A stretch of DNA of 64,000 nt, taken from NCBI GenBank assembly GCA_964616485.1, contig CAZTRB010000005.1:11592-75591 (forward strand), written 5' to 3'. A program made the position numbers and the translations under genes. Shown piece by piece: positions 13,815 to 44,805 of the stretch; the stretch's first letter is position 1; each line of letters begins with the position of its first letter. Under the pieces are notes generated by a model. That model saw nothing but the letters and a program-made list of their open reading frames with translations. It ran no database searches and had not been told where the DNA came from. This stretch comes from an uncultured Muribaculaceae bacterium. GTDB taxonomy: Bacteria > Bacillota_I > Bacilli_A > RF39 > UBA660.

Positions 13815-13847
13815 GCAAGAAAAAAGATATCTTTTTCAAGATATCTT
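13815..13847 (-). terminator. rho-independent terminator of the giant pilin-like gene
   Basis: 10-bp stem AAGATATCTT/AAGATATCTT (13824-13847) with a 4-nt loop, overlapping the stop. It is followed on the minus strand by TTTTTCTT. Confidence 0.7.
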
Positions 13848-16800
13848 ATCCCCAATTTTCACAACCACAAGCTGCTGTTCTACAAGAATTATTTCCTCCT
13901 ACACAAGTACTATAAGTGTATAGACAATTATTCCATCCACATGCACTATGTTGACAATAATAGTATCCGGCACATCCACAGCAATCATTATAACAGGTTG
14001 CAGCTTCCTCACCAGAAACACAACATGTTGTCGAAGTTTTATACCATGTTTGGCCACCCGAACTAGGTTTGCTACTTGCACACTTAGTTCCGCACCCATA
14101 ACCTCCTGTGTTTTGGTAACATTCATAGATATTTCCTTTAGTTTTACAATATGTTCCGCAACAAGAGTAACTAGTACATCTTTTATTTCCAGTACATCCG
14201 CATCCGGCAGTATAACAAGAATTATATCCTCCAACACAAACGGACGGGTTACCTGTTAAACAAGAATTCCATCCACAATTAGCATGTTGACAACTCTTAT
14301 TGGTAACACAACTCGATGTTATAGAACAAGTTCCTGTATTACCCGCTCCATCTGTAACCGTGTATGTCTTTGTACCTTTAACATTTGAATCATTATATGT
14401 AGCTGGAGATACTCCACTTGCATTATCAGAAGTTGTAACTTTTACGGTTATTCCATTAGCTCCATTCGCTGTTTTAACAGCAGTACAAGTAGGATTAACT
14501 GTATCTCTTTTTATCGTAAATACATTAGATGCAGCAGATGCATTACCTGCATTGTCAATTGATCTTACATAGAAATTCCAATTCCCATCCCAGTTTATCG
14601 TCCATGGATTTGACATTGCTGTCCAATTTGCAGCATCATGACTATACTGATAACTAGCAATTCCAGAACCAGTTCCGTCCGAAGATGATGCAGTTATTAC
14701 AACATTAGATTTTGTCCAAGTGCCTGAAGTATAAGAACCTAGATTGATCGTTGGTTTTGAAGGTTTTGTTGCATCTCTCTTTATTGTTACGACATTTGAA
14801 TTATCACTTATGTTACCAGATTTATCTATAGCCCTTACATAAACGTTCGTAGATATATCTGAACTAATTGTCCATGGATTCGACATCGTCGTCCATCCCG
14901 ACGTCCCATTAGTACTATATTCATATCTATCTAAGTTAGTATCCGATGAACTCGCTGTTATGACAATATTTTGATTTGACCATGTATTAGATGTATATGT
15001 AGTACCATCTGCTTTTTTCAAGGTTAAAGTTGGTTTCGACGGTTTCGTCGCATCTCTTTTAACATTAAAGACGTTTGACACATCACTTATATTACCAGCA
15101 CCATCAGTAGACCTTACATAGTAATTACTTTCGACATCTGTACTAATTGTCCATGGATTTGCCATATTTGTCCATCCTGAAGTTCCATTAACACTATATT
15201 CATATTTACTTATTCCTGAAATATTATCAGTTGAACTTGCCGTTACGACTACATTGCCAGAGGTCCATGTCCCTGAAGTATAAGAACCTAAATTGATCGT
15301 CGGTTTCGATGGTTTAGTAGCATCCCTTTTGATAACTACGGCATTAGATACATCACTAACATTTCCTGAGGAATCGATTGCTCTTACATAGATGTTTGTC
15401 GAAGTATCCCAGTTAATCGTCCATGGATTTGTCATAGCCATCCATCCCGATGTTCCGGTCGTACTATATTGATATCCAGCTAAGTTATCATCAGTTGAAC
15501 TTGCTGTAATGATTATATTTTGATTTGACCATGTATTAGATGTATAAGTAGAATTGTCTGCTTTCTTCATTGTCAATGTTGGTTTTGATGGTTTCGTCGC
15601 ATCTCTTCTAACAATAAATGGATTTGAATTATCACTTACGTTACCAGCACCATCAGTCGATCTGACATAGTAAGTTTTATCGGTATCGAAGTTTATCGTC
15701 CATGGATTTGACATCGTCGTCCATCCTGAAGTTCCATTGTTACTATATTCGTATTTGCTTATTCCCGAAATATTATCAGTTGAACTTGCCGTTACGACGA
15801 CATTACCAGAAGTCCATGTACCAGAAGTATACGAACCTAGATTAATCGTCGGCTTCGATGGTTTAGTACCATCTATTTTTACCGTTTGGTTGTTCGGACA
15901 AGTAACACAGTTTCCTGCTCTATCACAAACCTCGCCCGGTCCAGCCGTCGTCGTATTTATATCACTAGTATAAGGTTTAGTAATTGTCGTATTTACACAA
16001 CCACTACCACTATCACTACAAGTACCAATTATATTTACAGTCGTCTTACTCCATGCAGAACTTCCACCACTACTTACACAAGTTGGTTTCGTCGTATCGA
16101 TCGTATCGACGACTACCGCTTTATTAGTAACATGTCCAGCTTGGTCCTTAACCCACACATAATATGTACCATTATCAGAAGCTATATTTGGAACACCAAT
16201 TCCAAAACTAGTTCTTGCCGATATAGCGGTAAATGTCGGTTGTGTCGTCGAACTCTTATTTATACCGTAACCGATTATTCCTGAATTAGTATCTGTTCCG
16301 GTAAATACTATCGTTCCGTTAAGTCCGTCTTGACCAGTATCGATTATCGTCGAGTACGCTACATCCCAACTTACTGAAGTACCAGAACCCGTCAAGTAAA
16401 CGTGTCCGAAAGTCGAGAACGTTCCCGAACTACCCGCTTTTTGAATATAGATATATTCTGCCCAATCTCCAGTTCCAGCTTGTGGAGTGATCCAGTAGAC
16501 GCTTGAACCTGTACCGGTAGAATTAGAAGCTCTTTGAATAGTATACCCAACTGGTATCTTTGCAATTATTCTATGAGCATATACAGCATTAGCTCTCGAA
16601 GTTACAGTTTGAACATAACCTCCTAATCCAGGAGAACTGACACCATTTGTCGTTATTCTCATAACGTATGAACCATATGGGTTAGATTGAGCTACTCTAG
16701 CGTGAGTAACAGTACCATTTCCACTATTATTATATACGCTAAAGTTATTTGTCCCAGAAGCAAACGTCGGATCTTTGAATAACGGAGTCCCTGATATTGC

Positions 16801-18897
16801 TTCTGATATAACCGGAGCATTTTTATCTATTCTTACGATTTGGTCAGCCTGGCAAGTAGTACAGTTTCCTGCATTATCACAAACTTGTCCAGGTGATTCA
16901 TTAGTCGAATTTATATTAGAAGTATATGTTTTCGTTACCGTCGAATTCACACAACCACTATCAGCGTCATTACACGTTCCAGTAATCGTGACATTCGTCG
17001 TTTTCCATGTAGCGCTTCCACCACTATTTATACATGTTGGTGGTTCGTTATCGGCAGTTATCGTTTGGTGATACCATCCGCCACTATTTGGCGATTGAGT
17101 TATGACGTTACCAGCATTATCAACTAGTCTCGTATAAACGGTATATACTCCTCCAGGTAAACTAACAACGTGTTTATTTTGTCCAGTAATAGATGTAATG
17201 CCACCTACAGCAACACCGTTTCTTTCCATCTTGACTTGGAACTCTTTAATACCACTCAAATTATCAGCAACCGTAATTGTCAACGTTTGATTAGCACTAT
17301 ATACTCCCGTTAATAAGCTATAACTTGCAGTAGGAGCCGTCTTGTCGATTCTAGAAATCGTTACTGATGAAGGATCAGATGATAAACCGACAACGTTTCT
17401 CGTACGAACTTGAGCATTCGTTACATTTGACGAATAAATATTATAATTTGTCGATTGCCAAGAAGCGCCATCATTAAACGAATACTCAGTCGTTCTAACT
17501 AATCCAGCTCTTGGAATCAAGTTAACTTTTACATTGTTCTTAGTCCAGATACCTGGAGAAGCAGCGACTAAATCAATTCTAGAAACATTGTAAGATACAC
17601 CACTTAGTGCTCCTAAAACTAATCTAAAGTTAGAGTATTGTCCAACCGAAGGTAAAATAAACTCTATGTCTCTAGTACCTTGAATCATTAATGCTGATAC
17701 TGAGAGTTCATTCCCATTTTGATCTTTAAAGTAGACTCTACCCGTCGTCGTCGTTGGAATATTAGTATTTAAAGTCACAGTTAATTTCTTAATACCATTA
17801 AATGTCGGATACGAAGCAGTACCAAACGTTATAACTGGGTTTGTCGTAGTCGTCGTTAGTATTGTACCCGCTAAATTTAACCCCGAAAGAGTATATTCAT
17901 ATTGGTTAGGGAACAATTGATATGCATACTCAACATCAAATTCTGGTTTTGGAACACCCACTCTTACGTCGATTGAACAAATCCCCTCATTACCCGCTTC
18001 GTCTTTAACATAACCTACGACTGTCGTAAGTCCCATATCTAATTTAAGACTATCTTTTTTATTATAATCAATATTCTTTATACTAGTACCAAGTCCATAA
18101 GTTAAAAGTCCACTATCAGCATCATCTTTAGTATCGAACTTAACATAAACGTCTCCCGAATACCACCCTAACGCTTCTAAGTTTCCGCCATCTCTAATAA
18201 GTGTACAAGTTGGAGGAGTCTTATCGACATATACTTTTACCGGACAACTAGTTTGATTTCCACTCTTATCAACTATATTAATAAAACTCTCAGTAGTAGT
18301 CGTACCAAATGTCTTAGAGAATCTAGCTAAACGACAACCACTAGTTTGGTCACTACAACCAACACTAATTGTTCTATTTTCCTTAGTCCATGTAGTAGAT
18401 TCACCTATGACACTACCACATACCGGATTATCATTATCAGATTCATACTTAGAACAAGCCGAACCTTCAGTAGAATAATTTTCACAATACAAACACGCTC
18501 TATATTCGTAGTCACCACTAACTTTGCTTACCTCAACATAACTAAGTAAACTATTACAAAATCCATCTGTTTCCGGATCTTTTAATTCATCAGAGTAACC
18601 TTTTTCAATAACATCACTCAAATAGACAATAGATCTATCTCCATCGCCTGGTAAATTACAAGTGTAATCATTATTAGCAATACAATCAACAACCATGTTA
18701 TTCGTAGCTGTTTGCATATTCTTTTCATAAGCTAAATAAGTATTATCCTTACTACTTCCAATATAATTAGAAATAGCCGGAACTGTAATGATTGCCAATA
18801 TAGCAATTATCACGATAACGGCGATTACTTCTATTAAAGTAAACCCTTTCTTTTTCTTGGCTTTTTCCAAAATTTTACTAACAGTTTTCTTTCGCAT
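13846..18897 (-). CDS. giant (1683 aa) modular protein with an N-terminal type IV prepilin (class III) signal, multiple Ig-like modules and a Cys-rich C-terminal domain
   Basis: The start at ATG 18895-18897 is supported by AAGGAG 7 nt upstream and by a TTGACT-17-TAAAAT promoter lying inside the track's longer ORF. Leader MRKKTVSKILEKAKKKKG, then FTLIEVIAVIVIIAILAIITVPA (G-1, F+1, E+5; encoded at 18829-18846). The body has recurring D.SG(I/L)..Y and D.AGN strand motifs. No LPXTG. Confidence 0.9.
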   Translation of the reverse strand: MRKKTVSKILEKAKKKKGFTLIEVIAVIVIIAILAIITVPAISNYIGSSKDNTYLAYEKNMQTATNNMVVDCIANNDYTCNLPGDGDRSIVYLSDVIEKGYSDELKDPETDGFCNSLLSYVEVSKVSGDYEYRACLYCENYSTEGSACSKYESDNDNPVCGSVIGESTTWTKENRTISVGCSDQTSGCRLARFSKTFGTTTTESFINIVDKSGNQTSCPVKVYVDKTPPTCTLIRDGGNLEALGWYSGDVYVKFDTKDDADSGLLTYGLGTSIKNIDYNKKDSLKLDMGLTTVVGYVKDEAGNEGICSIDVRVGVPKPEFDVEYAYQLFPNQYEYTLSGLNLAGTILTTTTTNPVITFGTASYPTFNGIKKLTVTLNTNIPTTTTGRVYFKDQNGNELSVSALMIQGTRDIEFILPSVGQYSNFRLVLGALSGVSYNVSRIDLVAASPGIWTKNNVKVNLIPRAGLVRTTEYSFNDGASWQSTNYNIYSSNVTNAQVRTRNVVGLSSDPSSVTISRIDKTAPTASYSLLTGVYSANQTLTITVADNLSGIKEFQVKMERNGVAVGGITSITGQNKHVVSLPGGVYTVYTRLVDNAGNVITQSPNSGGWYHQTITADNEPPTCINSGGSATWKTTNVTITGTCNDADSGCVNSTVTKTYTSNINSTNESPGQVCDNAGNCTTCQADQIVRIDKNAPVISEAISGTPLFKDPTFASGTNNFSVYNNSGNGTVTHARVAQSNPYGSYVMRITTNGVSSPGLGGYVQTVTSRANAVYAHRIIAKIPVGYTIQRASNSTGTGSSVYWITPQAGTGDWAEYIYIQKAGSSGTFSTFGHVYLTGSGTSVSWDVAYSTIIDTGQDGLNGTIVFTGTDTNSGIIGYGINKSSTTQPTFTAISARTSFGIGVPNIASDNGTYYVWVKDQAGHVTNKAVVVDTIDTTKPTCVSSGGSSAWSKTTVNIIGTCSDSGSGCVNTTITKPYTSDINTTTAGPGEVCDRAGNCVTCPNNQTVKIDGTKPSKPTINLGSYTSGTWTSGNVVVTASSTDNISGISKYEYSNNGTSGWTTMSNPWTINFDTDKTYYVRSTDGAGNVSDNSNPFIVRRDATKPSKPTLTMKKADNSTYTSNTWSNQNIIITASSTDDNLAGYQYSTTGTSGWMAMTNPWTINWDTSTNIYVRAIDSSGNVSDVSNAVVIKRDATKPSKPTINLGSYTSGTWTSGNVVVTASSTDNISGISKYEYSVNGTSGWTNMANPWTISTDVESNYYVRSTDGAGNISDVSNVFNVKRDATKPSKPTLTLKKADGTTYTSNTWSNQNIVITASSSDTNLDRYEYSTNGTSGWTTMSNPWTISSDISTNVYVRAIDKSGNISDNSNVVTIKRDATKPSKPTINLGSYTSGTWTKSNVVITASSSDGTGSGIASYQYSHDAANWTAMSNPWTINWDGNWNFYVRSIDNAGNASAASNVFTIKRDTVNPTCTAVKTANGANGITVKVTTSDNASGVSPATYNDSNVKGTKTYTVTDGAGNTGTCSITSSCVTNKSCQHANCGWNSCLTGNPSVCVGGYNSCYTAGCGCTGNKRCTSYSCCGTYCKTKGNIYECYQNTGGYGCGTKCASSKPSSGGQTWYKTSTTCCVSGEEAATCYNDCCGCAGYYYCQHSACGWNNCLYTYSTCVGGNNSCRTAACGCENWG
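14500..15873 (-). repeat. five in-frame tandem repeats (~270-279 bp, 90-93 aa each) in an A-B-A-B-A pattern inside the giant gene
   Basis: Units begin D(A/G)TKPSKPT at 15873, 15603, 15324, 15054 and 14775 (complement). A-type units read INLGSYTSGTWTSGNVVVTASSTDNISGISKYEYS. B-type units read LT(M/L)KKAD..TYTSNTWSNQNI(I/V)ITASS. DNA copies are similar but carry many synonymous differences. Confidence 0.9.
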
Positions 18898-18931
18898 AAT
18901 AAAGCTCCTTGTATTATCTTTTATATATAAC

Positions 18932-18960
18932 ATTTTAATATCTTTATACATAATAGTCAA
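18932..18960 (-). promoter_or_regulatory. sigma-A-type promoter of the giant pilin-like gene
   Basis: Complement: TTGACT (18955-18960), 17 nt spacer, TAAAAT (18932-18937). About 35 nt upstream of the ATG. Confidence 0.5.
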
Positions 18961-19105: not shown

Positions 19106-21121
19106 ATGAAGAGATTTTTATTCGTGATTCTTTTGATATTGCTTCTTTTTAATAGTGGAACAGCACATGCAGAAATTATTAAGACTGGTCGGGCTATAGC
19201 CGATGTTGGGCTTAGAATTAGAGCTACTCCCTCTACTAGCGGAACACAATTAGGAACGATACCCTATGGAACGATAGTTAGAATCATCGGTGAAGCGAAT
19301 GGTTCGGGATGTAACGATCCTTGGTTTCAAGTAATTTACTCTACTGGTAATAGTAATATAAACGGTTATTCTTGTTCTACTTATATAACGGAAATTACGG
19401 AGTATGATACTGAAGAGAATACGCCTACAACACCACCAGTAAATAGCGAGGACTTCGAAGCCTACTTAACTTCACAAGGATTCCCAGAAAGCTACAAAGT
19501 CAAACTAAGAATTTTACACGAACAACATCCTAATTGGATATTTGTCGGTATAAAAGTAAGAGAGTCTTGGCAAACGTCTTTAAATCTTCAAGGCGAAGAT
19601 GGAAGAAGTACATTAAATGTTAATGCGGCAAGAAAGGCTTTGGGGCAAGAGGGATATTTATCGACTGCAGCGGGACACTATAACTATGAGACTGACACTT
19701 TTATTCCTAAAGATGGTACTTATTGGTTTCAAGCTAACTCAGATGCTATTGGATATTACCTTGACCCAAGAAACTTCATGGACGAGAAAAATGTTTTCAT
19801 GTTCGAAAGTCTTTTACAAAACGATGCTATTCATACTAAATCAGTAGTCGACGGGATCTTGTCGAGTGACTTCATGAAACAATATTCTAATCATTTCATG
19901 AAAGGTGCAAGAGACTACAACGTTTCTGCTACGCACTTAGCATCACTATCTAGACAAGAAGTAGGAATTACTAACGGTAACATTGTTACTAACGGAAAAG
20001 CCGGAGTATTATCAGACGGAGTTAACTATAACGGTTACTATAACTTTTTTAATATCGGAGCATCATCATCGGGAGATCCGAAGTTAAAATCGTTACAAAG
20101 CGCTAAAGCTCGCGGCTGGAATTCACCTGAGAAATCAATCGTTGGTGGAGCGGCTTTTATATCTAGTGGTTATATTAATGCCGGACAATACACGGCTTAT
20201 CTTCAAAAGTTTAACGTCGATCCTAATGCTACTAAAGGAATATGGCATCAGTATATGACTAACATAGCGGCATTATCTTCGCCGGCAATTACGACATATA
20301 ACTCATATAATAATCTCGGTTTCATAAACCATTCATTTATATTCTCGATTCCAATATTTACTAATATGCCAGAAAGCACTTCGTTACCTCCCTTAGGTAA
20401 CCCAAATAACTGGCTAAAAGAAATAAAGATAAATGGTATCGCTTTATCTAGTTTCTACGGTGGTACCACTAATTACACCATCGATATTCCTTACGAGGAA
20501 GAGATTACAGTAGAGGCTAAAAAAGTAAATAGTAACGCTACTGTATCAGGAACTGGAACAAAAGCCTTAACGGAAGACAAAACCACTTTAACGATTAAAG
20601 TCACTGCTCAAAACGGAAGCGTTAAAAACTATACGGTAACAGTTAATCGTGGGATAAAAGACGATCCTAACTTAGAGATAGATCTTCTATTAAAAGATGT
20701 CTTAACTGATAGCAAATACAAATACGATAGTAAAAATCTTTGGGGAATAACTCTAGGAACTAGCGTTAAGAGTCTTACTAGTAAAATAAAAGGAAAATAT
20801 AAAACAGTAAGTGTAAATATAAAAAATAAAGACGGCAATACTAAAACAGACGGTGTCATAGTTACAGGAGATAAAGTAACGATAACGACTAAACAAGAAT
20901 CTACTACTATCGAAGTAATAATCTTTGGTGATACTAATGGAGACGGATACATCTCGGCAATCGACATCTTAAGCGCTCAAAAACATATCCTTGGATATAC
21001 TACTCTTTTAGGAACTAGTTTCAAAGCGGCAGACATAAATAAAGACGGTGTCATATCAGCTTATGACTTACTACAATTTCAAAAACACGTCTTAGGTTAT
21101 ACTAATATAAGCCAATCATAG
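19106..21121 (+). CDS. secreted peptidoglycan N-acetylglucosaminidase (GH73-like) with SH3b, cadherin-like beta-sandwich and C-terminal dockerin
   Basis: Sec signal ending AHA|E. SH3b-like GLRIRATPSTSGTQLGTIPYGTIVRIIGE. Glucosaminidase-like core (YLDPRNF...HLASLSRQEVG...YNFFNIGA). Cadherin-like module at 20413-20652. Dockerin duplicated F-hand: GDTNGDGYISAIDILSAQKHILG and AADINKDGVISAYDLLQFQKHVLG (20927-21105). Confidence 0.85.
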   Translation: MKRFLFVILLILLLFNSGTAHAEIIKTGRAIADVGLRIRATPSTSGTQLGTIPYGTIVRIIGEANGSGCNDPWFQVIYSTGNSNINGYSCSTYITEITEYDTEENTPTTPPVNSEDFEAYLTSQGFPESYKVKLRILHEQHPNWIFVGIKVRESWQTSLNLQGEDGRSTLNVNAARKALGQEGYLSTAAGHYNYETDTFIPKDGTYWFQANSDAIGYYLDPRNFMDEKNVFMFESLLQNDAIHTKSVVDGILSSDFMKQYSNHFMKGARDYNVSATHLASLSRQEVGITNGNIVTNGKAGVLSDGVNYNGYYNFFNIGASSSGDPKLKSLQSAKARGWNSPEKSIVGGAAFISSGYINAGQYTAYLQKFNVDPNATKGIWHQYMTNIAALSSPAITTYNSYNNLGFINHSFIFSIPIFTNMPESTSLPPLGNPNNWLKEIKINGIALSSFYGGTTNYTIDIPYEEEITVEAKKVNSNATVSGTGTKALTEDKTTLTIKVTAQNGSVKNYTVTVNRGIKDDPNLEIDLLLKDVLTDSKYKYDSKNLWGITLGTSVKSLTSKIKGKYKTVSVNIKNKDGNTKTDGVIVTGDKVTITTKQESTTIEVIIFGDTNGDGYISAIDILSAQKHILGYTTLLGTSFKAADINKDGVISAYDLLQFQKHVLGYTNISQS

Positions 21122-21130
21122 GAGGACTTT

Positions 21131-22546
21131 ATGAAAAAAATCTTTAAACCATTTACAATGGTTTTCCTTTTTACAGTGATGTTTTTGTTTAATAATAACG
21201 TCTTGGCAGCTAACTTAAATGTCTCGATAACCTCGAGTACTAGTAGAGCGGTAGTTGGTAACAATATTACTTATACGGTTAGAGTGTCTTCTAATGCTAA
21301 ATTTGGTAATATTCATTATAGATTAGAATATGACACTTCTAAGTTAACTCATGTAAGTGGAACACTAAATAATTTTGATTTAAATGTTATCGATAAATAT
21401 TCTGCTACTTACACTTTTACTTTTAGAGCAAAAGCAAGTGGTAATGCTAGAGTAACGTTCGTAATCAACGAAGCCTTAGAATTAAATAACAATTCTTTTA
21501 ATTATAATACTAGAACCAATAAAGATATAACGATCATAACTCAACAACAATTAGAAGCTAGCTATAGTAAAAACAACTACCTATCATCTTTAAAAATAGA
21601 TAATTTTGAAATGACACCGGCTTTTAATAAAGATACTTTAGAATACTCGATAGAATTAGAAAACGATGTTAAATCAATAAATATTAGCGGTACTAAAGCA
21701 GATTCAACAGCATCAGTCGAAGGTTTGGGTGCACATGAATTAATAGAAGGACCAAATAAAATAAATATAAAAGTTACTGCCCAAAACGGTGCCTCTAGAA
21801 CATATACGATAAATGCAACGGTAAAAGAATTAAATCCCATTATCGTAACTGTCGACGGCAAAGAATATAATGTCGTTAGAAAAAAAGACCTAATAAAAAA
21901 ACCTAATAGCAAATACGAAGAGACGATTATACAAATAAATGAAGAAGATGTCCCAGCTTTCATAAACGAGACGACTAAAGTAACATTAATCGGGCTTAGA
22001 GATGAAGAGGACAACATTTCTTTATTTAGTGTTAAAAATGATACGTATATTCCTTACCAAGAATTCGCTTTTAGTAGTATAATATTTACGGAAGAAAATT
22101 TAGACGATCTTCCTAAAGGTTATACTAAAACTAAATTAAAACTCGAAGAAGTAGAAATAGACGCTTATCAAGATAACTCTAACTTAAATTTCTACCTAAT
22201 AAAAGGAGTGAACATTGAAACGGGAATAACTTCCCTATATCAATATGATAGTAAAGAAAACACTCTTCAAATATATAATGATTCATTAGCTAAACAAAAT
22301 AAGGAATTAACTAATAAGAATAATATTTATCTTTATACTATAATTGGTCTAATAGCACTCATAGCTATATCTTCCGGAACGATATTAGTAAAGACTTTAA
22401 AAAATGAAAAACCTAAAATAAAAAAAGAAGAGAAGACCGACAAAAAAGTCAAAGAAAAAGTAGAGGAACCGAAAGAACCTATCATAGAAGAAGAGAGTCT
22501 AACAAAACAAATAAAGAAAATGAAAAAAAATAAAAAACAATCTTAA
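21131..22546 (+). CDS. membrane-anchored surface protein with cohesin-like N-terminal domain and cadherin-like beta-sandwich
   Basis: Sec signal (VLA|AN). Residues ~27-135 (21209-21536) read VGNNITYTVRVSSNAKFGNIHYRLEYDTSKLTHVSGT, which fits the cohesin pattern. Cadherin-like module at about 21580-21825. C-terminal TM helix (IYLYTIIGLIALIAISSGTILV) and a Lys/Glu-rich tail. Confidence 0.7.
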   Translation: MKKIFKPFTMVFLFTVMFLFNNNVLAANLNVSITSSTSRAVVGNNITYTVRVSSNAKFGNIHYRLEYDTSKLTHVSGTLNNFDLNVIDKYSATYTFTFRAKASGNARVTFVINEALELNNNSFNYNTRTNKDITIITQQQLEASYSKNNYLSSLKIDNFEMTPAFNKDTLEYSIELENDVKSINISGTKADSTASVEGLGAHELIEGPNKINIKVTAQNGASRTYTINATVKELNPIIVTVDGKEYNVVRKKDLIKKPNSKYEETIIQINEEDVPAFINETTKVTLIGLRDEEDNISLFSVKNDTYIPYQEFAFSSIIFTEENLDDLPKGYTKTKLKLEEVEIDAYQDNSNLNFYLIKGVNIETGITSLYQYDSKENTLQIYNDSLAKQNKELTNKNNIYLYTIIGLIALIAISSGTILVKTLKNEKPKIKKEEKTDKKVKEKVEEPKEPIIEEESLTKQIKKMKKNKKQS

Positions 22547-37648: not shown

Positions 37649-37921
37649 CTAGTTAACTGCTTCTTTTAATGCTGTACCAGCTTTAAAAGTAACGGCTTTT
37701 CTCGCAGCAATTTTAACTTTTGCTCCTGTTTGTGGGTTACGTCCCTCTCTTGCTTTTCTATGTGAAACTCCGAAAGTTCCAAATCCAGCAACTGGTACCT
37801 TGTTCCCCTTTGCTAATGCATTAGAAATAGTATTAAATACTGCGTCTAAAGCACGTGTTGCATCAGCTTTTGTAAGTCCCGTTTCTTTTGCAACTGCTTC
37901 TACTAAATCTGCCTTTTTCAT
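37649..37921 (-). CDS. hup: DNA-binding protein HU
   Basis: 90 aa. MKKADLVEAVA...GFGTFGVSHRKAREGRNPQTG is the canonical HU sequence. Confidence 0.96.
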   Translation of the reverse strand: MKKADLVEAVAKETGLTKADATRALDAVFNTISNALAKGNKVPVAGFGTFGVSHRKAREGRNPQTGAKVKIAARKAVTFKAGTALKEAVN

Positions 37922-38018: not shown

Positions 38019-39059
38019 TTACATAATTAACGCTTTTTCATTCAAAACATAGCGATAAGCCTTATTTTCATGGATAATAATAAACGTACTTTCTCTTTTC
38101 CTCTTACTCTCAAAAAACAAGATAGGTATCCTTAATTCATCTTCGATATCGATTAGATCTTTAACGTTAGTTATATCCATTACATTAAATTTACTTAAGT
38201 CTGGTTTTTTAGCCACTTCAGCGATAACATTGGCATAAGTAGTTAAGATCCTATCTCTTTCTTTAGTGTAAGGGTCAGCGTTTTTAAGGTGTAGTACTCT
38301 CTTTAAATAATAGAAGAATAAGACAAATGACACCATTACTAAGAATATTCCAATAGTAAGACCGTACTGATTAACGATGTTATCTTTACTAAAAACATTT
38401 TTATTCTCATTGAAAGATCCCGTTTTATCGACACTTACTACCGTATCCAAAAGAGGAATTTTAGCTGTCATAGTGTGAAGATCAGCGACTTTCTTAGCCG
38501 TTTCTTTAGTCGTAATAAGATTGTTTATTTCAAAGACAACTTTTATATAAGCCTCTGTTAAGATAGAACTTTCTTTTCTAAACTCCAAAGCTTCTTCTTG
38601 ATATTCTTTATAATCGATAGTCGTTTTATAATCAAAGAACACGACTCCTGTCTCTTGTTTTATGACTTTATTTTTAGGAAACAAAACGTCTTCTCTCTTC
38701 CATAATTCTTCCGTTTGAAGGCCGTCTTTATAAGTGTTAACTAAAAACAAAGATATAGAATATTCCGCTTCAGAATCAATTAGATTAATAGACGTAAGGT
38801 CATAAGTAAATTTTAAATCGATATAGTCGATATATTTAGCTAGAATCTTATTCTTATTAATATATTCATCTTTATATAAAAAGTTATCTTTTAGTCTAAA
38901 ATTATACTCGATATCACCGAAAGATTTATAATCGACAACGATATTATTTTTGTTATTTTCTATACTCGTACTATCATAAGTTATAATTGATCCGGCAAAA
39001 AAGAGTAATACCCCTAGTAATAATAATACTATACTTTCCTTTTCTTTAGTTCTTTTCAT
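38019..39059 (-). CDS. DUF5305-like two-TM protein (346 aa), last gene of the accessory operon
   Basis: N-terminal TM helix, an extracytoplasmic domain of about 200 aa, a second TM helix (YGLTIGIFLVMVSFVLFFYYL), then a cytoplasmic C-terminal domain. This topology next to SipW-type peptidases matches what I recall for DUF5305. The assignment is unverified. Confidence 0.55.
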   Translation of the reverse strand: MKRTKEKESIVLLLLGVLLFFAGSIITYDSTSIENNKNNIVVDYKSFGDIEYNFRLKDNFLYKDEYINKNKILAKYIDYIDLKFTYDLTSINLIDSEAEYSISLFLVNTYKDGLQTEELWKREDVLFPKNKVIKQETGVVFFDYKTTIDYKEYQEEALEFRKESSILTEAYIKVVFEINNLITTKETAKKVADLHTMTAKIPLLDTVVSVDKTGSFNENKNVFSKDNIVNQYGLTIGIFLVMVSFVLFFYYLKRVLHLKNADPYTKERDRILTTYANVIAEVAKKPDLSKFNVMDITNVKDLIDIEDELRIPILFFESKRKRESTFIIIHENKAYRYVLNEKALIM

Positions 39060-39073
39060 CTTGACCTCCTATT

Positions 39074-40213
39074 TTAATTATTTAAAAGTTCATTAAACCA
39101 TACTGTAGGATATCCAAAATATGGTAGAGAAACATTATATTTTGCAACTATGTCTTCCGGATAAACTCTCCAGTTATCTTCTGACGAATTATTATCTCCT
39201 TTTGTTATGAGATAATCTATATCACCATTAGATAATCTACTTATATAATTAATCCTGTGAACGACATAGGTATTATCGTATCTATAATAGATTATATCAT
39301 ATTGAACTAAATTATTAATATCTTTATCACTTAATTTTTCTAAAATTAATAAATCTCCTCTTTTAAAAGTATCTTTCATACTATCGGATAAAACGGCCAT
39401 CGGATAATAATTAAATACTCTTAAGATAAACATTATTAATACCGATACGACGATGGCAAGAATAGTTATACCACCATTCTTTTCATCGATAAACCTTCTC
39501 GTTCTAGAATCGCTATTATTAACCAAGGTACTTATATTAAAATAGACGAACATCGGTAGCAACAAACCGAATAGAGTCGTTACAATCCAGGGATGGCTAG
39601 GTAAAATAGGTAAGATGATTAGTAATAGTCTCGTCCATACCAAGTAGATTATAGTCGTCTTATACTTCATATTTCTTTGTAAATAAGTCATGACATAACT
39701 AGTTATAATAAGCGGAAGGACTAATGAAGAAAACATCTTAAAAAGATAACTAAACTCACTTACAGAGAAAATATATAAGACATTCATACTACTGAAAGCC
39801 AATAAAAATGAAATGATACTATTATTAATTAAAGTATCTTTGGAGTTGGTAATTAACTTATATCTTATATACTCGTTTACCGTTATCGTTCCAATAGTAG
39901 TAAAAACAACTTTTAAAAGAGTAATTAAAGACCTATTATATATCGATTTCTCATAACCAAAGAAAAGACCAGACATAAAATATATTAAAGAATATATTAT
40001 TAAGATTATTATTATGTTTTGAGTCTTATCGTAGTTATCTTTGCTCTTAGTATATTTAGTATCGAATAAAAAGAAGAAAGTAACTGCTATTATCGATAAA
40101 ATTATCATATTCATTATTCCTGCATACACAGAGAAGATAGAAGTAACTAGATAATTTTGAAATATTATATATAAAAACAGTATTATATATGTTAAATATA
40201 TTTTCTTCATCAT
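39074..40213 (-). CDS. SipW-type (S26B, archaeal/ER-type) signal peptidase I fused to an N-terminal polytopic membrane domain of about 270 aa
   Basis: C-terminal AVLSDSMKDTFKRGDLLILEKL...VVHRI...ITKGDNNSSED parallels B. subtilis SipW (SGSMEP..GD.., H, TKGDNN). The N-terminal two-thirds form about 7-8 hydrophobic helices. Start MMKKIY (40213 or 40210) with GGAGGA directly upstream; the track start at 40261 is unlikely. Confidence 0.75.
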   Translation of the reverse strand: MMKKIYLTYIILFLYIIFQNYLVTSIFSVYAGIMNMIILSIIAVTFFFLFDTKYTKSKDNYDKTQNIIIILIIYSLIYFMSGLFFGYEKSIYNRSLITLLKVVFTTIGTITVNEYIRYKLITNSKDTLINNSIISFLLAFSSMNVLYIFSVSEFSYLFKMFSSLVLPLIITSYVMTYLQRNMKYKTTIIYLVWTRLLLIILPILPSHPWIVTTLFGLLLPMFVYFNISTLVNNSDSRTRRFIDEKNGGITILAIVVSVLIMFILRVFNYYPMAVLSDSMKDTFKRGDLLILEKLSDKDINNLVQYDIIYYRYDNTYVVHRINYISRLSNGDIDYLITKGDNNSSEDNWRVYPEDIVAKYNVSLPYFGYPTVWFNELLNN

Positions 40214-40310: not shown

Positions 40311-40826
40311 TTAACGAACTACATAGTCAAGTGTCAGCCTCAAGTCTTTTGTTAAGTCTTCAGCGGTAACTTCTTCAGTCATATCTGGATTATAATAAGC
40401 TATAACTTCAAATAATTTGCTTTGTCCGACTTGTAATACTTCACCGGCTTCTATTCCGTTTATTGTATAAATAATAAATCCTTCTCCATAGTCTTTAGGA
40501 TTTAATTCAATGGCATTTAATTTAGCATCTAGGTTTCCTTGATTTCTAACATTAACAACATATTTAACGGTATCACCAGGATCGACAAAAGTAGCGCTAA
40601 ATATAGCGGTCTTAGAATCTAAAACGGTCGATTCTAAACTTTTTCCACTTCCCTCAGTCTCTGTGCTATTAATTGCCGTTATCGCGACGTCAAAGTCAGG
40701 GTTAACGATCGTAGCACTTCCTTTTATTTCTAACTGCGTAGATAAAAGAGCATACCCTACTGACACAAAAACAAGTGCAACTAGTAAAGCTCCAATCATC
40801 GTATTTTTCTTATCTTTATTGCTCAT
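40311..40826 (-). CDS. exported beta-sandwich protein with a SipW-cognate-type signal peptide (TasA/camelysin-like)
   Basis: KKNTMIGALLVALVFVSVGYALLSTQLEIKG resembles the SipW-cognate signal class (G-x-x-A-hydrophobic-hydrophobic-S/T). The mature part has a DPGDTVKYVVNVRNQGNLDAKL motif like TasA/CalY. Strong RBS GGAGGA. Confidence 0.55.
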   Translation of the reverse strand: MSNKDKKNTMIGALLVALVFVSVGYALLSTQLEIKGSATIVNPDFDVAITAINSTETEGSGKSLESTVLDSKTAIFSATFVDPGDTVKYVVNVRNQGNLDAKLNAIELNPKDYGEGFIIYTINGIEAGEVLQVGQSKLFEVIAYYNPDMTEEVTAEDLTKDLRLTLDYVVR

Positions 40827-40880
40827 ATAATCCTCCTATAATAAATTTTAATATATATGGCTTTTATTGTCAATTATTCG

Positions 40881-41948
40881 CTATGAATCTACTACTTTTA
40901 ATTTAAGACGAATCATACTCTTAACCTGATTAAATTGTTCAGTAGAATGAAACATTGTCTGTGAAATTGTCGTTGAACCTACTTTATCACCAGTTACGAC
41001 CCATTCGTAATAGTTTGTTCTTAAGAATGTACTAGGGTCTTTTCTATTTACATAAGGTTCAGAAACAGCTGTCGCATAGTTTTGCCAACCTTTAGCACCA
41101 TCAGCCGTCGTCCTTTGAAGCTGTTTTATTTTACCAGCACTAACTGGAAGTTTTACGATTATTCTAATAGTCTCTCCCTTTTTTACGACTATTTCATCAT
41201 CTCTTTTATATTCTTTTCCGTTATACCAAAGAGTAGGAGTTTGGGCTACTTTACCTATTTTAGGTGAGATATAATAATCATCATTATCAATATCTCCGAC
41301 AAAAGCCCTAGCTTCTTCATCGAGACTAAGATTAGTACTAGTTATTTGACTATTGACTATCTTTTTAACTTCTTCTTCCTTTATTTTAATCTCTTCTATT
41401 TTAGTAGTAGTAACTCCTTTAATAGAGGCTATCTCTTTATCAATACTCTCTTTTAAAATCGTCAAAGTTCTAAAGTCACTATCGACATTCGTCGTTAATT
41501 CATCTTTAGTAGATTGATAAGTCTTATAAGCACTAGTTAAAGTAGTCGTCTCTTCATTATTACTATCTAACTCGTATTTAGGTGAAGGTTCTCTTAGTTT
41601 ATCAAGAGTCTCTTTATTTTTCTCATACTGTAAATCTAAATCTTTAAAAGTCTCTAACATCGATACTAGATTGTTTACTATGCGTTCTGAAACTGGAATC
41701 AATGCTTGTTCGACATTTTTATTAAGATTTTTAATAGCTTCTATTATCTGTGGTAAAAACTCGGACTTTAAATACTCTTGTCCCGCTTCTTTCCAATTCT
41801 CACCGCTCATCGAATCTAATAGATTTGTGTCTATATCAACTATTTTAGTAACATCTTCAAGCACCCTTTTCGCTTTGTTAACAAGTTCTTTTTCACTTTT
41901 GAGTTTTTCATAATAATTATCGTAAGGATTAATATAAAAAATTGCCAT
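40881..41948 (-). CDS. LXG-like T7SS-substrate-type protein with a beta-rich (Ig-like) C-terminal domain
   Basis: No signal peptide. The helical N-terminal region of about 200 aa contains LLDSMSGENWKEAGQEYLKSEFLPQ, which parallels the LXG-domain core of Bacillus LXG proteins as I recall it (DALKGKGGDAIRTFYEECHKPFL). The C-terminal ~150 aa (GETIRIIVKLPVSAGK...YEWVVTGDKVGSTTISQTM) look like a Big-type beta-sandwich, with no nuclease or deaminase motif. Confidence 0.5.
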   Translation of the reverse strand: MAIFYINPYDNYYEKLKSEKELVNKAKRVLEDVTKIVDIDTNLLDSMSGENWKEAGQEYLKSEFLPQIIEAIKNLNKNVEQALIPVSERIVNNLVSMLETFKDLDLQYEKNKETLDKLREPSPKYELDSNNEETTTLTSAYKTYQSTKDELTTNVDSDFRTLTILKESIDKEIASIKGVTTTKIEEIKIKEEEVKKIVNSQITSTNLSLDEEARAFVGDIDNDDYYISPKIGKVAQTPTLWYNGKEYKRDDEIVVKKGETIRIIVKLPVSAGKIKQLQRTTADGAKGWQNYATAVSEPYVNRKDPSTFLRTNYYEWVVTGDKVGSTTISQTMFHSTEQFNQVKSMIRLKLKVVDS

Positions 41949-41964
41949 TTAATCACATCCTTTA

Positions 41965-42288
41965 TTAATTTATATCTAATTTGCTAGTATTGTCTTCTAA
42001 AAATTGAATTCGATTTCTTTCATCGGTATTATAAGCTTCGATTGCTTCTTCTAAAAACAAAATCAAACTCTCTAATTCTTTTATTTCTAAAGGAAAGTTT
42101 TCACTTATCTTTAAATACTTGTCATACATAATTTGTTGAGTCTTACCAACCCAAACATCAGTTTCTCCATTTATTTGCTTTAGATTATGATCTAATTCAT
42201 CGAATTTACTTTCAAGACTAAACTTTTTTTGTTTTAAAAGAGCTACTACTTTTTCAAGTTCTTTAGTATTAATATCTAAATTCATCAT
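41965..42288 (-). CDS. WXG100-family small helical protein (107 aa)
   Basis: Helix-turn-helix size class with a central W46-V-G48 (TGGGTTGGT, complement of 42145-42153). ATGA overlap with the upstream gene. Confidence 0.65.
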   Translation of the reverse strand: MMNLDINTKELEKVVALLKQKKFSLESKFDELDHNLKQINGETDVWVGKTQQIMYDKYLKISENFPLEIKELESLILFLEEAIEAYNTDERNRIQFLEDNTSKLDIN

Positions 42289-42588: not shown

Positions 42589-43482
42589 TTAAACTCCTTG
42601 CTTCAATACATCGATATATATTTCGTTAGTCAATAGGGTTTCAACGGTAATATCTAACTTTTTAGCGATGTTATTGATATAGTTTTTATATATACTCATC
42701 TCTTTATTAGTTAAGCCATCCGGTATTTCAGGAGCATAATAAAGAGAGTGAAAAGTTTTAAACAAAAGAGTCTTATTTTTATCCTCGATTAATAGTTCGG
42801 AAAAAGTAATATTACTTGATTCTGCTACTTTTTCTAGATGTTCTTTAGTTATTAAAAAAGTCAGGCTTTGTTCAAAAATATTAAAATCTTTGTTTTTTGC
42901 TAACAATTCTAAAAGTTGTTTTTGAATGACAAAATTATCTTCTGTAGAAAAAACTAAATTTGGTGCGAATCTTTTTAAGTAGAAGATTAAGGCCTTAGTG
43001 TTTTGGCCTCCAAATAAAAGACGATTTAAATTAAATGGGTCTTTTTCGTTAACGTTTTGAACTAGCAAACTTTGTCCAAACGAATCGAAATCAGCAAGGT
43101 CCGTAATCTGGCTATTAGGAAGCATGCTTGGTCCACCTACAGTCTCTCCAATTACACCACTAAATCCACCACCTCCAGTATAGCCACTATAACCACTACC
43201 ATTATTAGTATCATCTTCGACAATCTTACCAAGATTCTCTTCACTAGTTATCATGTCTTCACTATGTCCTCTAAGTCTTCTAATTAATTGTGTTTTATTT
43301 GTAGCAAGACTATCTACGTCTTTTTTAATATCTTCGGCAACAGTCGATAGTTCTAATTCTTTAAATACAGCAAAATCAGTAGCCACCGAAGTAGCGACTG
43401 CTTCCAAAAGGGCCGAAGTCTCTGATAACTTACTAATTACTTCTTCTAATTCTGCAGAGTTATAAATTATTTCATTTGTCAT
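42589..43482 (-). CDS. helical N-terminal (Lap1/SACOL2603-like) protein with Gly-rich linker and unknown C-terminal domain (297 aa)
   Basis: N-terminus MTNEIIYNSAELEEVISKLSETSALLEA resembles the DUF3130/TIGR04197-type start of T7SS accessory proteins. Gly-rich linker NNGSGYSGYTGGGGFSGVIGETVGG. The C-terminal ~170 aa are unassigned. No signal peptide. Confidence 0.45.
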   Translation of the reverse strand: MTNEIIYNSAELEEVISKLSETSALLEAVATSVATDFAVFKELELSTVAEDIKKDVDSLATNKTQLIRRLRGHSEDMITSEENLGKIVEDDTNNGSGYSGYTGGGGFSGVIGETVGGPSMLPNSQITDLADFDSFGQSLLVQNVNEKDPFNLNRLLFGGQNTKALIFYLKRFAPNLVFSTEDNFVIQKQLLELLAKNKDFNIFEQSLTFLITKEHLEKVAESSNITFSELLIEDKNKTLLFKTFHSLYYAPEIPDGLTNKEMSIYKNYINNIAKKLDITVETLLTNEIYIDVLKQGV

Positions 43483-43500
43483 ATAATCACCTACTTATTA

Positions 43501-44805
43501 TTAATCACTTCTATTTTTAAACTGTAATACTATCGGAGTACCACTTAATTCAAAATTTTCTCTTAATTTATTTTCTAAATATCTCTCGTATGAAAAGTGA
43601 ACGAGATTTTTATTATTAACATGAAATGTATATTTAGGAGGTTTCTTTCCCGTTTGATTGACAAAATATATCTTAAGTCTCTTACCTTTATAAGATGGTG
43701 GTGGATTTAATGTGTATGCTTCAATCATAACTTCAGATAAAAGACTACTCGCTATTTCTCTACTTATATTTTCTTTTACTTTAAGTATCTCAGGCATAAT
43801 AGTATGAATTCTCTTTTTAGTTAAAGCCGATGTAAATACGATCGGTACATAACTTAAAAATTGAAACTCTGATCTTACTTTCTTAGTATATTCTCTTATA
43901 TCCATATCTTTAACAGTATCCCATTTGTTAACGACGATTATTAATCCTTTACCACTTTCCAAGACATATCCGGCAATATGTTTATCATGCTCGATAATTC
44001 CTTCTTCCGCATTAATTACTAAGAGACAAATATCGCTACGATCAATCGCCTTCATACTTCTAAGAGCACTATACTTCTCAATATTTTCAAATATTCGTCC
44101 CTTTTTTCTTAATCCAGCTGTGTCGATAGCTACAAACTCTTCATCGTTATATCTGAACACCGTATCAACGGCATCTCTAGTCGTTCCAGGAACATCACTA
44201 ACAATTAAACGGTCTTCATTTAAAAGAGCATTTATAATACTACTCTTACCGACATTGGGCCTTCCAACGACGGAAAACTTTAAACGATTATCTTCTATTG
44301 AATAATCTCTCTTCGGTAAATGCGATACTATTTCATCGAAAAGTTCGATGAAACCGATATTATGCTCTCCACTTACTTGAACATAACTATCGAATCCAAG
44401 CTCATAAAAATCATAGATATTATCGATACTCTTTTTACTATCTACCTTGTTAATAACGACTATTACTTCCTTGTTACTTTTTCTTAACATATCTCTTACT
44501 AAATAGTCGTTACTAGTCAAGCCCTCTTTACCATCGACGATAAATAACACGACATCGGCTTGTTCGATAGCAATTTCCGCTTGCATTTTTATTACGTCAT
44601 TAAATTTTATCTCTTCACTATCGATACCACCGGTATCAATAACATTGAACTTATAATCTCCGTAAGTAGTATCACTATATATCCTGTCTCTAGTAACTCC
44701 AGGAGTATCTTCGATAATAGATATTCTTGAACCGACCATACGATTGAAGATTGTGCTTTTTCCAACATTAGGCGTTCCGACTAATGCGATAATTGGAAGG
44801 TTCAT
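43501..44805 (-). CDS. der: ribosome-associated GTPase Der/EngA
   Basis: Two tandem GTPase domains (GTPNVGKST, GRPNVGKSS; DTGG/DTAG; NKVD/NKWD) and a KH-like C-terminus. Confidence 0.95.
   Translation of the reverse strand: MNLPIIALVGTPNVGKSTIFNRMVGSRISIIEDTPGVTRDRIYSDTTYGDYKFNVIDTGGIDSEEIKFNDVIKMQAEIAIEQADVVLFIVDGKEGLTSNDYLVRDMLRKSNKEVIVVINKVDSKKSIDNIYDFYELGFDSYVQVSGEHNIGFIELFDEIVSHLPKRDYSIEDNRLKFSVVGRPNVGKSSIINALLNEDRLIVSDVPGTTRDAVDTVFRYNDEEFVAIDTAGLRKKGRIFENIEKYSALRSMKAIDRSDICLLVINAEEGIIEHDKHIAGYVLESGKGLIIVVNKWDTVKDMDIREYTKKVRSEFQFLSYVPIVFTSALTKKRIHTIMPEILKVKENISREIASSLLSEVMIEAYTLNPPPSYKGKRLKIYFVNQTGKKPPKYTFHVNNKNLVHFSYERYLENKLRENFELSGTPIVLQFKNRSD

Follow-up and report, generated by a model that had tools for sequence, protein, structure and literature searches.

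A four-gene cassette in the style of type VIIb secretion whose immunoglobulin-like cargo probably acts at the cell surface

[quoted passage not shown] A 64,000-nucleotide (nt) stretch of chromosomal DNA, low in GC (about 30%) and of Bacillota type, which is referred to here as the window, raises the question of what else might be found in such a setting. The open reading frame (ORF) at 40881-41948 encodes a protein of 355 amino acids (aa) which an earlier note, made from the sequence alone, had described as LXG-like, with an immunoglobulin (Ig)-type beta-sandwich in place of a C-terminal toxin. The computational analysis presented here indicates that the gene probably closes a four-gene T7SSb-style cassette of an undescribed family, and that its Ig-like cargo is most likely non-toxic and surface-acting.

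The ORF is real. An identical product is found on public contigs with the gene order unchanged, and three homologues at 40-44% identity were retrieved by a word-indexed search. Nearly all genes in its vicinity lie on the minus strand. It belongs to a run of seven co-directional, tightly spaced genes between der (43501-44805) and a gene for HU (37649-37921), made up of a quartet (297, 100, 107 and 355 aa), in which the effector-like gene is the fourth and last, and of a trio downstream. The quartet and the parts of its last product are as follows.

42589-43482, minus strand: quartet gene 1, 297 aa, with an N-terminal helical hairpin, a Gly/Ser-rich linker and a helical C-terminal domain; no transmembrane (TM) segment
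42285-42587, minus strand: WXG100-like partner, 100 aa (matches under the curated cut-offs to WXG100, E=4.9e-5, and TIGR03930, E=7e-6)
41965-42288, minus strand: WXG100/YwqH-like partner, 107 aa (weak YwqH-like (E=1e-3), WXG100 and ESAT6_2 matches)
40881-41948, minus strand: effector-like protein, 355 aa (ATG start; ORF, homologues and AlphaFold2 model)
41349-41948, minus strand: N-terminal helical, targeting-like domain of the effector, residues 1-200, opening with the conserved motif MA.YF..PY..YY.KL
41781-41795, minus strand: W52-K-E-A-G56 turn motif at the junction of helix 1 and helix 2, read from the translation
40884-41285, minus strand: C-terminal Ig-like beta-sandwich domain, residues 222-355 (134 aa), a distinct undescribed family

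In an AlphaFold2 model built from a four-sequence alignment, three long helices cover residues 22-46, 54-117 and 139-200 of the effector, and a linker modelled with low confidence (residues 181-218) leads to a beta part of nine strands over residues 239-353. The predicted local distance difference test (pLDDT) is 75-91 from residue 221 onward and merely 50-60 in the first 90 residues. The layout is that of a helical N-terminal domain without a signal, followed by the linker and the C-terminal Ig-like domain. No hydrophobic segment is present in the effector or in any of the other three quartet proteins, and scans of the 355-aa protein against Pfam and NCBIfam returned noise only. The turn motif reads W.ELG in most relatives and takes the canonical form WEG or WKG in distant ones (WEG in P0142), with W52 invariant in both alignments of the N-terminal family that were inspected (A5 and A7).

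The two small proteins resemble WXG100 proteins in their length of about 100 aa and in a WxG at residues 42-44 and 46-48 respectively, with WXG100 scores of 24.0 and 15.5 bits against a cut-off of 27.3, and a TIGR03930 score of 26.1 bits against 44.85 for the 100-aa protein. Seven-member alignments showed that W42-x-G44-x-D46...F50 and Y82 are invariant in the 100-aa family, with YxxxD in six of seven, while in the 107-aa family W46 is invariant, G48 is kept in most members and Y86-x-x-x-E/D in all seven. In both families, the members of which are diverged, the Y-x-x-x-D/E lies close to the end of helix 2. The two genes overlap or abut those adjacent to them. The 297-aa protein, for which the sole match in a profile scan was a non-significant one to DUF5344 (E=0.07), is presumably a third secretion partner and is kept as gene 1 in the loci L002, L003, L009 (twice), L011, L013 and L025. 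The whole order of about 300 aa, about 100 aa, about 107 aa and effector repeats in L002, L003, L027, L009 (twice), L010, L011, L013, L015/L018 and L025 (twice). Wherever context is available the effector is the fourth gene, with the exception of a stand-alone copy (L022/L023).

An LXG domain is an all-helical region of about 200 aa without a signal and with an L-x-G turn. The turn found here is W52-x-E-x-G56 or WxG, and the model of the first 90 residues has low confidence. No match of the 355-aa protein to LXG (Pfam PF04740 / IPR006829) was obtained at E<=1; LXG is absent among the families reported for 103 relatives (49 + 54) at E<=0.001, and it lies outside the 25 most frequent weak matches of 32 N-terminal domains at E<=1, where coiled-coil noise is dominant and WXG100 is among the weak matches in six of the 32. 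A profile of these 32 sequences found neither an LXG nor an Esx chain in the PDB. PDB profile searches with the full-length, N-terminal and small-protein alignments gave coiled-coil noise, with EsxA/EsxB at non-significant E values of 0.15-0.8. What the locus does share with LXG-type effectors are the small WXG100-like genes upstream and the polymorphic C-termini behind a conserved N-terminal domain. The term LXG-like thus holds for the helical N-terminus, the upstream genes, the variable C-termini and a homologue next to essC, but not for the profile: alignment to LXG profiles, which the earlier note had itself named as decisive for its label, was found neither for the 355-aa protein nor among the most frequent matches listed for the 32 members at E<=1. 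The protein is LXG-like by architecture and context and is not a member of the LXG family.

The strongest evidence that this cassette family feeds a T7SSb machine is contextual and comes from one locus. The metagenomic locus L025 contains two homologous quartets in tandem and, 127 nt behind them, a gene for a 1534-aa protein with FHA and FtsK_SpoIIIE domains, which scores 1041 bits against the EssC equivalog TIGR03928 (cut-off 778.4). When the window proteins were compared with those of L025 (phmmer, target set of eight sequences), three of the quartet matched at E 1e-11 to 1e-17 and the 100-aa protein at 2e-8. Membership of the window quartet in a T7SS-style cassette family is considered very likely. 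Directly downstream of essC in the same locus (17196-18650), a protein that lacks a signal, measures at least 484 aa and starts MADIDVKSWEAL has a weak GerD-like C-terminal match and may be a further substrate.

The extent of the family became apparent by exhaustive HMMER searching, the word-indexed protein search having returned four homologues each for the effector and for the pilin-like protein encoded after it. A four-sequence profile recovered 207 cluster representatives at E<=0.001. Most of them seem to come from uncultured Bacillota of low GC content and gut type, and they form two sets that carry the N-terminal domain or the Ig domain. The N-terminal-domain family, with at least 96 cluster representatives, is separate from LXG; the domain (query residues 1 to about 180) heads proteins of 370-600 aa and one of 5353 aa. 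The C-termini behind it are unrelated, falling into at least 14 groups among 49 non-Ig members, or at least 15 groups once the Ig domain is included. Peptidase_C39_2 is the cargo in 18 of the 49. These C39-type effectors are followed by no immunity-like gene: infC comes next in L009 and L018, and the next cassette or essC in L025.

The 5353-aa relative (L011, 10001-27266) has the canonical WEG turn, faint matches to a transglutaminase core and a C-terminal ADPrib_exo_Tox domain that scores 28.5 bits, above the cut-off. It is preceded by genes of about 273, 106 and 107 aa and followed by an ADP-ribosylglycohydrolase gene, which is plausible as a candidate immunity gene. The neighbours of this locus (UvrD, an MmeI-like restriction-modification gene and KilA-N) resemble a mobile element or phage; a phage origin was set aside, as two scans of viral contigs, with Ig patterns and with N-terminal patterns, both gave zero matches. 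A second cassette type, of 470, 106, 105 and 415 aa, occurs at L018 5000-8297 (also L015 1723-5017) immediately upstream of a C39-type quartet, its last protein having an alpha/beta-hydrolase (Peptidase_S9/DLH-like) C-terminus. The 176-kb contig of L018 also holds a stand-alone protein with the N-terminal domain (L022).

The C-terminal domain of the 355-aa protein can be assigned an Ig-like fold with high confidence. Its closest solved folds are the Ig domains of the S-layer protein SbsC, and the remaining fold matches are to structural Ig domains, protease inhibitors and chaperones, none to toxins. By sequence it matched no PDB chain and no Pfam or NCBIfam family. The earlier description of the payload as an Ig-type sandwich and not a known toxin is therefore borne out by the AlphaFold2 model, the fold matches and the lack of a PDB sequence match, and membership in a known toxin family, the outcome that would have spoken against it, was not found in Pfam, NCBIfam, PDB sequence or fold searches. 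The description of about 150 beta-rich residues with a Big-like pattern fared less evenly: beta-rich content and similarity at the fold level stand, but the domain has 134 aa and homology to Big_2 does not hold. Its origin as a diverged Big_2 repeat (PF02368) was rejected after a comparison by hhalign with 72 such repeats, taken from the same set of proteins, aligned only 23 columns at 44% probability. A relationship to the neighbouring pilin family was also rejected, with an hhalign probability of 1.3%.

The distribution of the domain suggests an extracellular site of action. It lies within seven residues of the C-terminus in 65 of 70 proteins. The 62 full-length representatives comprise 36 with signal-less N-termini (the window type, a WEG/WQG type in L006-L008, and other forms) and 26 with a signal peptide, membrane anchor or lipobox. 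Among 54 Ig-domain proteins that were scanned, Big_2 is present in 20, Bact_surface_Ig-like in five and HL_N-beta in 11; in the Sec-type proteins a membrane or lipid anchor is followed by three to four Ig repeats and then by the domain, a layout typical of an adhesin or surface protein. A pair of Cys residues occupies the columns of I231 (window 41254-41256) and A271 (41134-41136): of the 26 Sec-type copies, 18 and 23 have it, against one and two of the 36 signal-less copies. This split fits the expectation that Sec-type copies fold outside the cell and signal-less copies in the cytoplasm before export.

The gene that follows the Ig protein differs across five contexts, encoding the 171-aa pilin-like protein, a convergent NUDIX-like protein, a Peptidase_S11 carboxypeptidase, a 778-aa protein or pyruvate kinase. 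Since no downstream gene is shared, the domain is probably no toxin but a binding or structural module that works outside the cell, and it is likely that the Ig-domain protein is not part of a classical toxin-immunity pair. Neighbours that are envelope enzymes occur in several loci, namely a VanY/M15 peptidase with a SleB/CwlJ-like hydrolase (L006-L008), Peptidase_S11 (L012) and Glycos_transf_4 (L031). Architecture and neighbours together allow envelope binding by the Ig domain to be put forward tentatively. Eight residues are invariant in the four closest homologues (E259, R262, R279, D283, E297, R302, Q330 and K343), and six across 25 diverse copies of the domain (R279, P298, W316, Q330, T331 and K343).

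A different arrangement of the same domain was seen at L007 7472-10801, L008 5652-8792 and in L006, where a WEG/WQG-type helical N-terminus is fused to it in the last gene of an operon. Other products of this operon are a VanY/M15 peptidase with two TM segments and a coiled coil, a lipoprotein anchored at its C-terminus and the SleB/CwlJ-like hydrolase, whereas small WXG partner genes are absent. In P0051 the same two-TM N-terminus is fused to the Ig domain without anything in between.

The genes downstream of the quartet form the second part of the locus.

40845-40873, minus strand: sigma-70-like promoter match TTGACA-17-TAAAAT, 11 of 12 consensus positions, in the 54-nt gap before the 171-aa gene; a consensus match only
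40311-40826, minus strand: 171-aa exported beta-sandwich protein, candidate TasA/ABP-class fibre subunit, hydrophobic segment at residues 10-28
39074-40213, minus strand: SipW/archaeal-type signal peptidase I (TIGR02228 68.7 bits, above the cut-off of 51.85; Peptidase_S26; ATG start, AGGAGG ribosome-binding site)
38019-39059, minus strand: DUF5305 protein (PF17231 E=1e-12), two TM segments

The gap of 54 nt between the 355-aa gene and the next gene contains no same-strand ORF of at least 50 aa and hence no small cytoplasmic immunity gene, in agreement with the earlier note, and the genes found downstream vary by context. The 171-aa protein (AlphaFold2 pLDDT 77) gave weak DUF11/DUF7507 matches and no match at E<=1 to the TasA, camelysin or Peptidase_M73 profiles of Pfam and NCBIfam. 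A Foldseek search with its model returned nothing at E<=0.001, the TasA fibre (8aur) ranking 21st with E=0.037. In the absence of a profile or strong fold match, the label TasA-like is based on context, that is, on the SipW-type peptidase and DUF5305. The claim that the next gene encodes an exported TasA-like protein thus keeps its single N-terminal hydrophobic segment and its SipW and DUF5305 context, but lacks profile and strong fold support. The peptidase has eight hydrophobic segments, seven of them in a polytopic N-terminal extension of about 250 aa that has no Pfam match; the form of about 380 aa is also found in L001, L002 and L028.

An exported beta-sandwich subunit together with signal peptidase I and DUF5305 is the signature of the TasA/ABP/Tafi/AbpX donor-strand fibre loci, in which DUF5305 has been proposed as an accessory subunit of the signal peptidase (PMC11821415, PMC12337348, bioRxiv 10.64898/2026.01.04.697558). 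All three components are present in the downstream trio, which places it in the TasA/ABP/Tafi class of loci. Each of the four orthologous loci (the window, L002, L003/L004/L005 and L027) has the quartet with this cargo directly upstream of the 171-aa gene. In L028-L030, from a relative with the same long-range synteny as the window (LtaS, ThiI, acetate kinase, DHH, EngB, der, SpoVIF...SpoIVA), the pilin, SipW-type and DUF5305 genes stand directly after SpoVIF (L028 9677-12807) and the quartet is absent, which offers a natural comparison with and without the quartet. Elsewhere, quartets and the Ig domain are widespread without the trio. Quartet and trio are thus separable. That they lie side by side is best put down to a juxtaposition specific to this lineage, and it is improbable that the two cooperate. 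A role in sporulation, which the neighbours SpoVIF, SpoIVA, SpoIIP and Gpr might suggest, was set aside as conserved chromosomal synteny.

Several observations weigh against reading the quartet as a T7SSb-style cassette with a surface-acting cargo. The small partners stay below the curated WXG100 cut-offs, the N-terminal domain has no LXG profile match, and the PDB profile searches were filled with coiled-coil noise in which EsxA/EsxB did not reach significance. Adjacency to essC was seen in just one metagenomic locus, where the cargo is a C39-like peptidase and not the Ig domain. No T7SSb core gene (essC, esaA, essA, essB, yukD) was found within the 64-kb window; as LXG loci commonly lie far from the T7SSb core cluster (PMC10765036), however, this is no argument against the model. 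The quartet might thus be unrelated to type VII secretion and consist of cytoplasmic coiled-coil proteins, serving for example in sporulation or division, with the motifs and the essC adjacency arising by coincidence. This would agree with WXG100, YwqH and DUF5344 matches that are all below curated thresholds, with the dominance of coiled-coil noise and with the position of the loci amid sporulation and housekeeping genes. Against it, the same C-terminal domain is carried, with the Cys pair, by clearly exported proteins, two families of about 100 aa have invariant motifs where these would be expected, two cassettes adjoin essC, and one relative combines an exotoxin-type ADP-ribosyltransferase with an adjacent glycohydrolase gene. 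A purely cytoplasmic role is therefore regarded as very unlikely.

Other points touch the nature of the cargo. The binding function proposed for the Ig domain is read from architecture and neighbours, many of its invariant polar residues would be compatible with an active or toxic site, and a shuffled, strictly C-terminal placement is a hallmark of polymorphic toxin domains as well. The domain could hence be a novel Ig-fold toxin directed at the envelope of competitors, with protection provided otherwise than by an adjacent cognate immunity gene. Its constant position at the extreme C-terminus behind both Sec-type and WXG/LXG-type N-termini, the enzymes carried by relatives of the N-terminal family (including the ADP-ribosyltransferase with its candidate immunity gene) and the two sets of invariant residues would suit such a toxin, but no downstream gene is conserved in the five contexts, the fold matches point to structural Ig domains, protease inhibitors and chaperones, and the Sec-type copies have the layout of adhesins or surface proteins. 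It is judged quite unlikely, as is a more specific proposal on the side of the fibre, in which an Ig-like protein, pre-folded and exported by a type VIIb machine, docks on the Sec/SipW-dependent fibre of TasA class that the neighbouring genes encode, or caps or anchors it. The broader form of that proposal, in which the seven genes are one unit and type VII secretion delivers the Ig-domain protein to serve the fibre as an accessory (a cap, wall anchor or cross-linker), is unlikely too. It draws on the quartet preceding the 171-aa gene in all four orthologous loci even though the effectors are just 41-44% identical, on the co-directional genes with their short gaps, and on the minor subunits, tip proteins and anchors encoded by TasA-like fibre loci elsewhere. 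The trio without the quartet at the syntenic site of L028-L030, the many loci with the Ig domain and quartet but no trio, the promoter-like site of the pilin gene's own and the hhalign result for the pilin family all speak against a single unit, and the adjacency may have been inherited from a single ancestor. The idea of a fibre-associated component raised in the earlier note is accordingly weakened, being possible but not supported, and an extracellular immunity role for the 171-aa protein is unlikely given that this protein is always accompanied by SipW and DUF5305 and is absent from the other Ig-domain contexts examined.

The reading that is preferred here, with moderate confidence, is that of a secretion cassette with a surface-acting cargo, standing beside an independent fibre module. 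Starting from the observed gene anatomy, motifs, family structure, Ig-domain distribution and essC adjacency of a homologous cassette, we infer complex formation, T7SSb export in this organism and a binding function along the following lines. If the quartet works as LXG-Lap and EsaD-EsxBCD do, the N-terminal helices of the effector would form a bundle in the cytoplasm with its 297-aa and WXG100-like partners, three proteins in all. The bundle would present a composite export signal made of the WxG turn and the YxxxD/E arm, which an EssC ATPase encoded elsewhere in the genome may recognise, and the effector would leave the cell folded and without a Sec signal. Outside, the most plausible action of the 134 Ig-like residues would be to bind part of the cell envelope or some other surface, and this binding might retain or present the effector at the cell surface. 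The pilin, SipW and DUF5305 genes would constitute an independent, Sec-dependent TasA-class fibre module.

These results point to a sizeable family of WXG-partner proteins that has been overlooked by the LXG profile, organised in a fixed four-gene cassette and usually without an immunity gene. Its cargos resemble surface or cell-wall proteins, as in the Ig-like module shared with Sec-exported surface proteins and the C39-like peptidases, which suggests that the secretion route may carry more than weapons. If this is correct, the substrate range and physiological role of T7SSb would be broadened toward envelope and surface biology, and the Ig domain would offer a natural test case of one extracellular domain exported by two routes. 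Should the docking of the cargo on the fibre prove true in spite of its low probability, T7SSb would for the first time be seen to export a cargo that builds matrix and is no toxin, and type VII secretion would for the first time be linked to donor-strand fibres.

Two further regions of the window were noted. At 13846-18960 (minus strand), a glycosyltransferase cluster is adjoined by the gene for a 1704-aa protein that has Big_7 domains and, at its N-terminus, a methylation motif of prepilin type, and at 19106-22546 (plus strand) two adjacent proteins have SH3_3, cadherin-like and type I dockerin domains.

Among known systems, the LXG-Lap assemblies of the Streptococcus intermedius T7SSb (TelA-LapA3-LapA4 and TelC-Lap1-Lap2) resemble the quartet. 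In common with it they have a signal-less N-terminus of some 200 aa, predicted as helical in the quartet's effector, in which a turn motif is conserved; genes for small, helical WXG100-like partners that lie immediately upstream; variable C-termini; loci that are often distant from the T7SSb core; and an acidic export-arm motif in a partner, FxxxD or YxxxD/E (PMC10801868, PMC10765036). The quartet differs in having no LXG profile match and a W-x-E-x-G or WxG turn instead of LxG, in the fixed extra first gene for a two-domain protein of about 300 aa, and in a cargo that is Ig-like (mostly C39-like peptidases in its relatives) with no immunity gene adjacent. Three helical partner genes ahead of the effector are also known from EsaD-EsxB/EsxC/EsxD of Staphylococcus aureus and the TelE assembly of Streptococcus gallolyticus, where the partners are co-expressed with the effector and, before it is exported, associate with its N-terminal and central parts (PMC10653861; bioRxiv 10.64898/2026.03.12.711312). 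EsaD, a nuclease, and TelE, a pore former, are nevertheless toxins with cognate immunity proteins, whereas neither an immunity gene nor a toxin fold was found for the quartet, and no sequence homology was demonstrated between the two sets of partners.

The trio, for its part, is comparable to the TasA/TapA/SipW locus and to the archaeal and bacterial ABP, Tafi and AbpX loci in its small exported beta-sandwich protein, SipW/archaeal-type signal peptidase I and DUF5305 protein, but it departs from TasA-class loci in lacking a TasA/camelysin profile match, in its weak fold match and in the seven-segment extension of its peptidase. Unlike the window, no described TasA/ABP-class locus includes genes of the WXG/LXG type. 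The nearest fold to the cargo is that of the Ig-like domains 4-6 of SbsC from Geobacillus stearothermophilus, although no sequence-profile relationship with them is detectable; SbsC is a Sec-exported lattice protein, whereas the Ig domain of the window is the cargo of a helical targeting domain.

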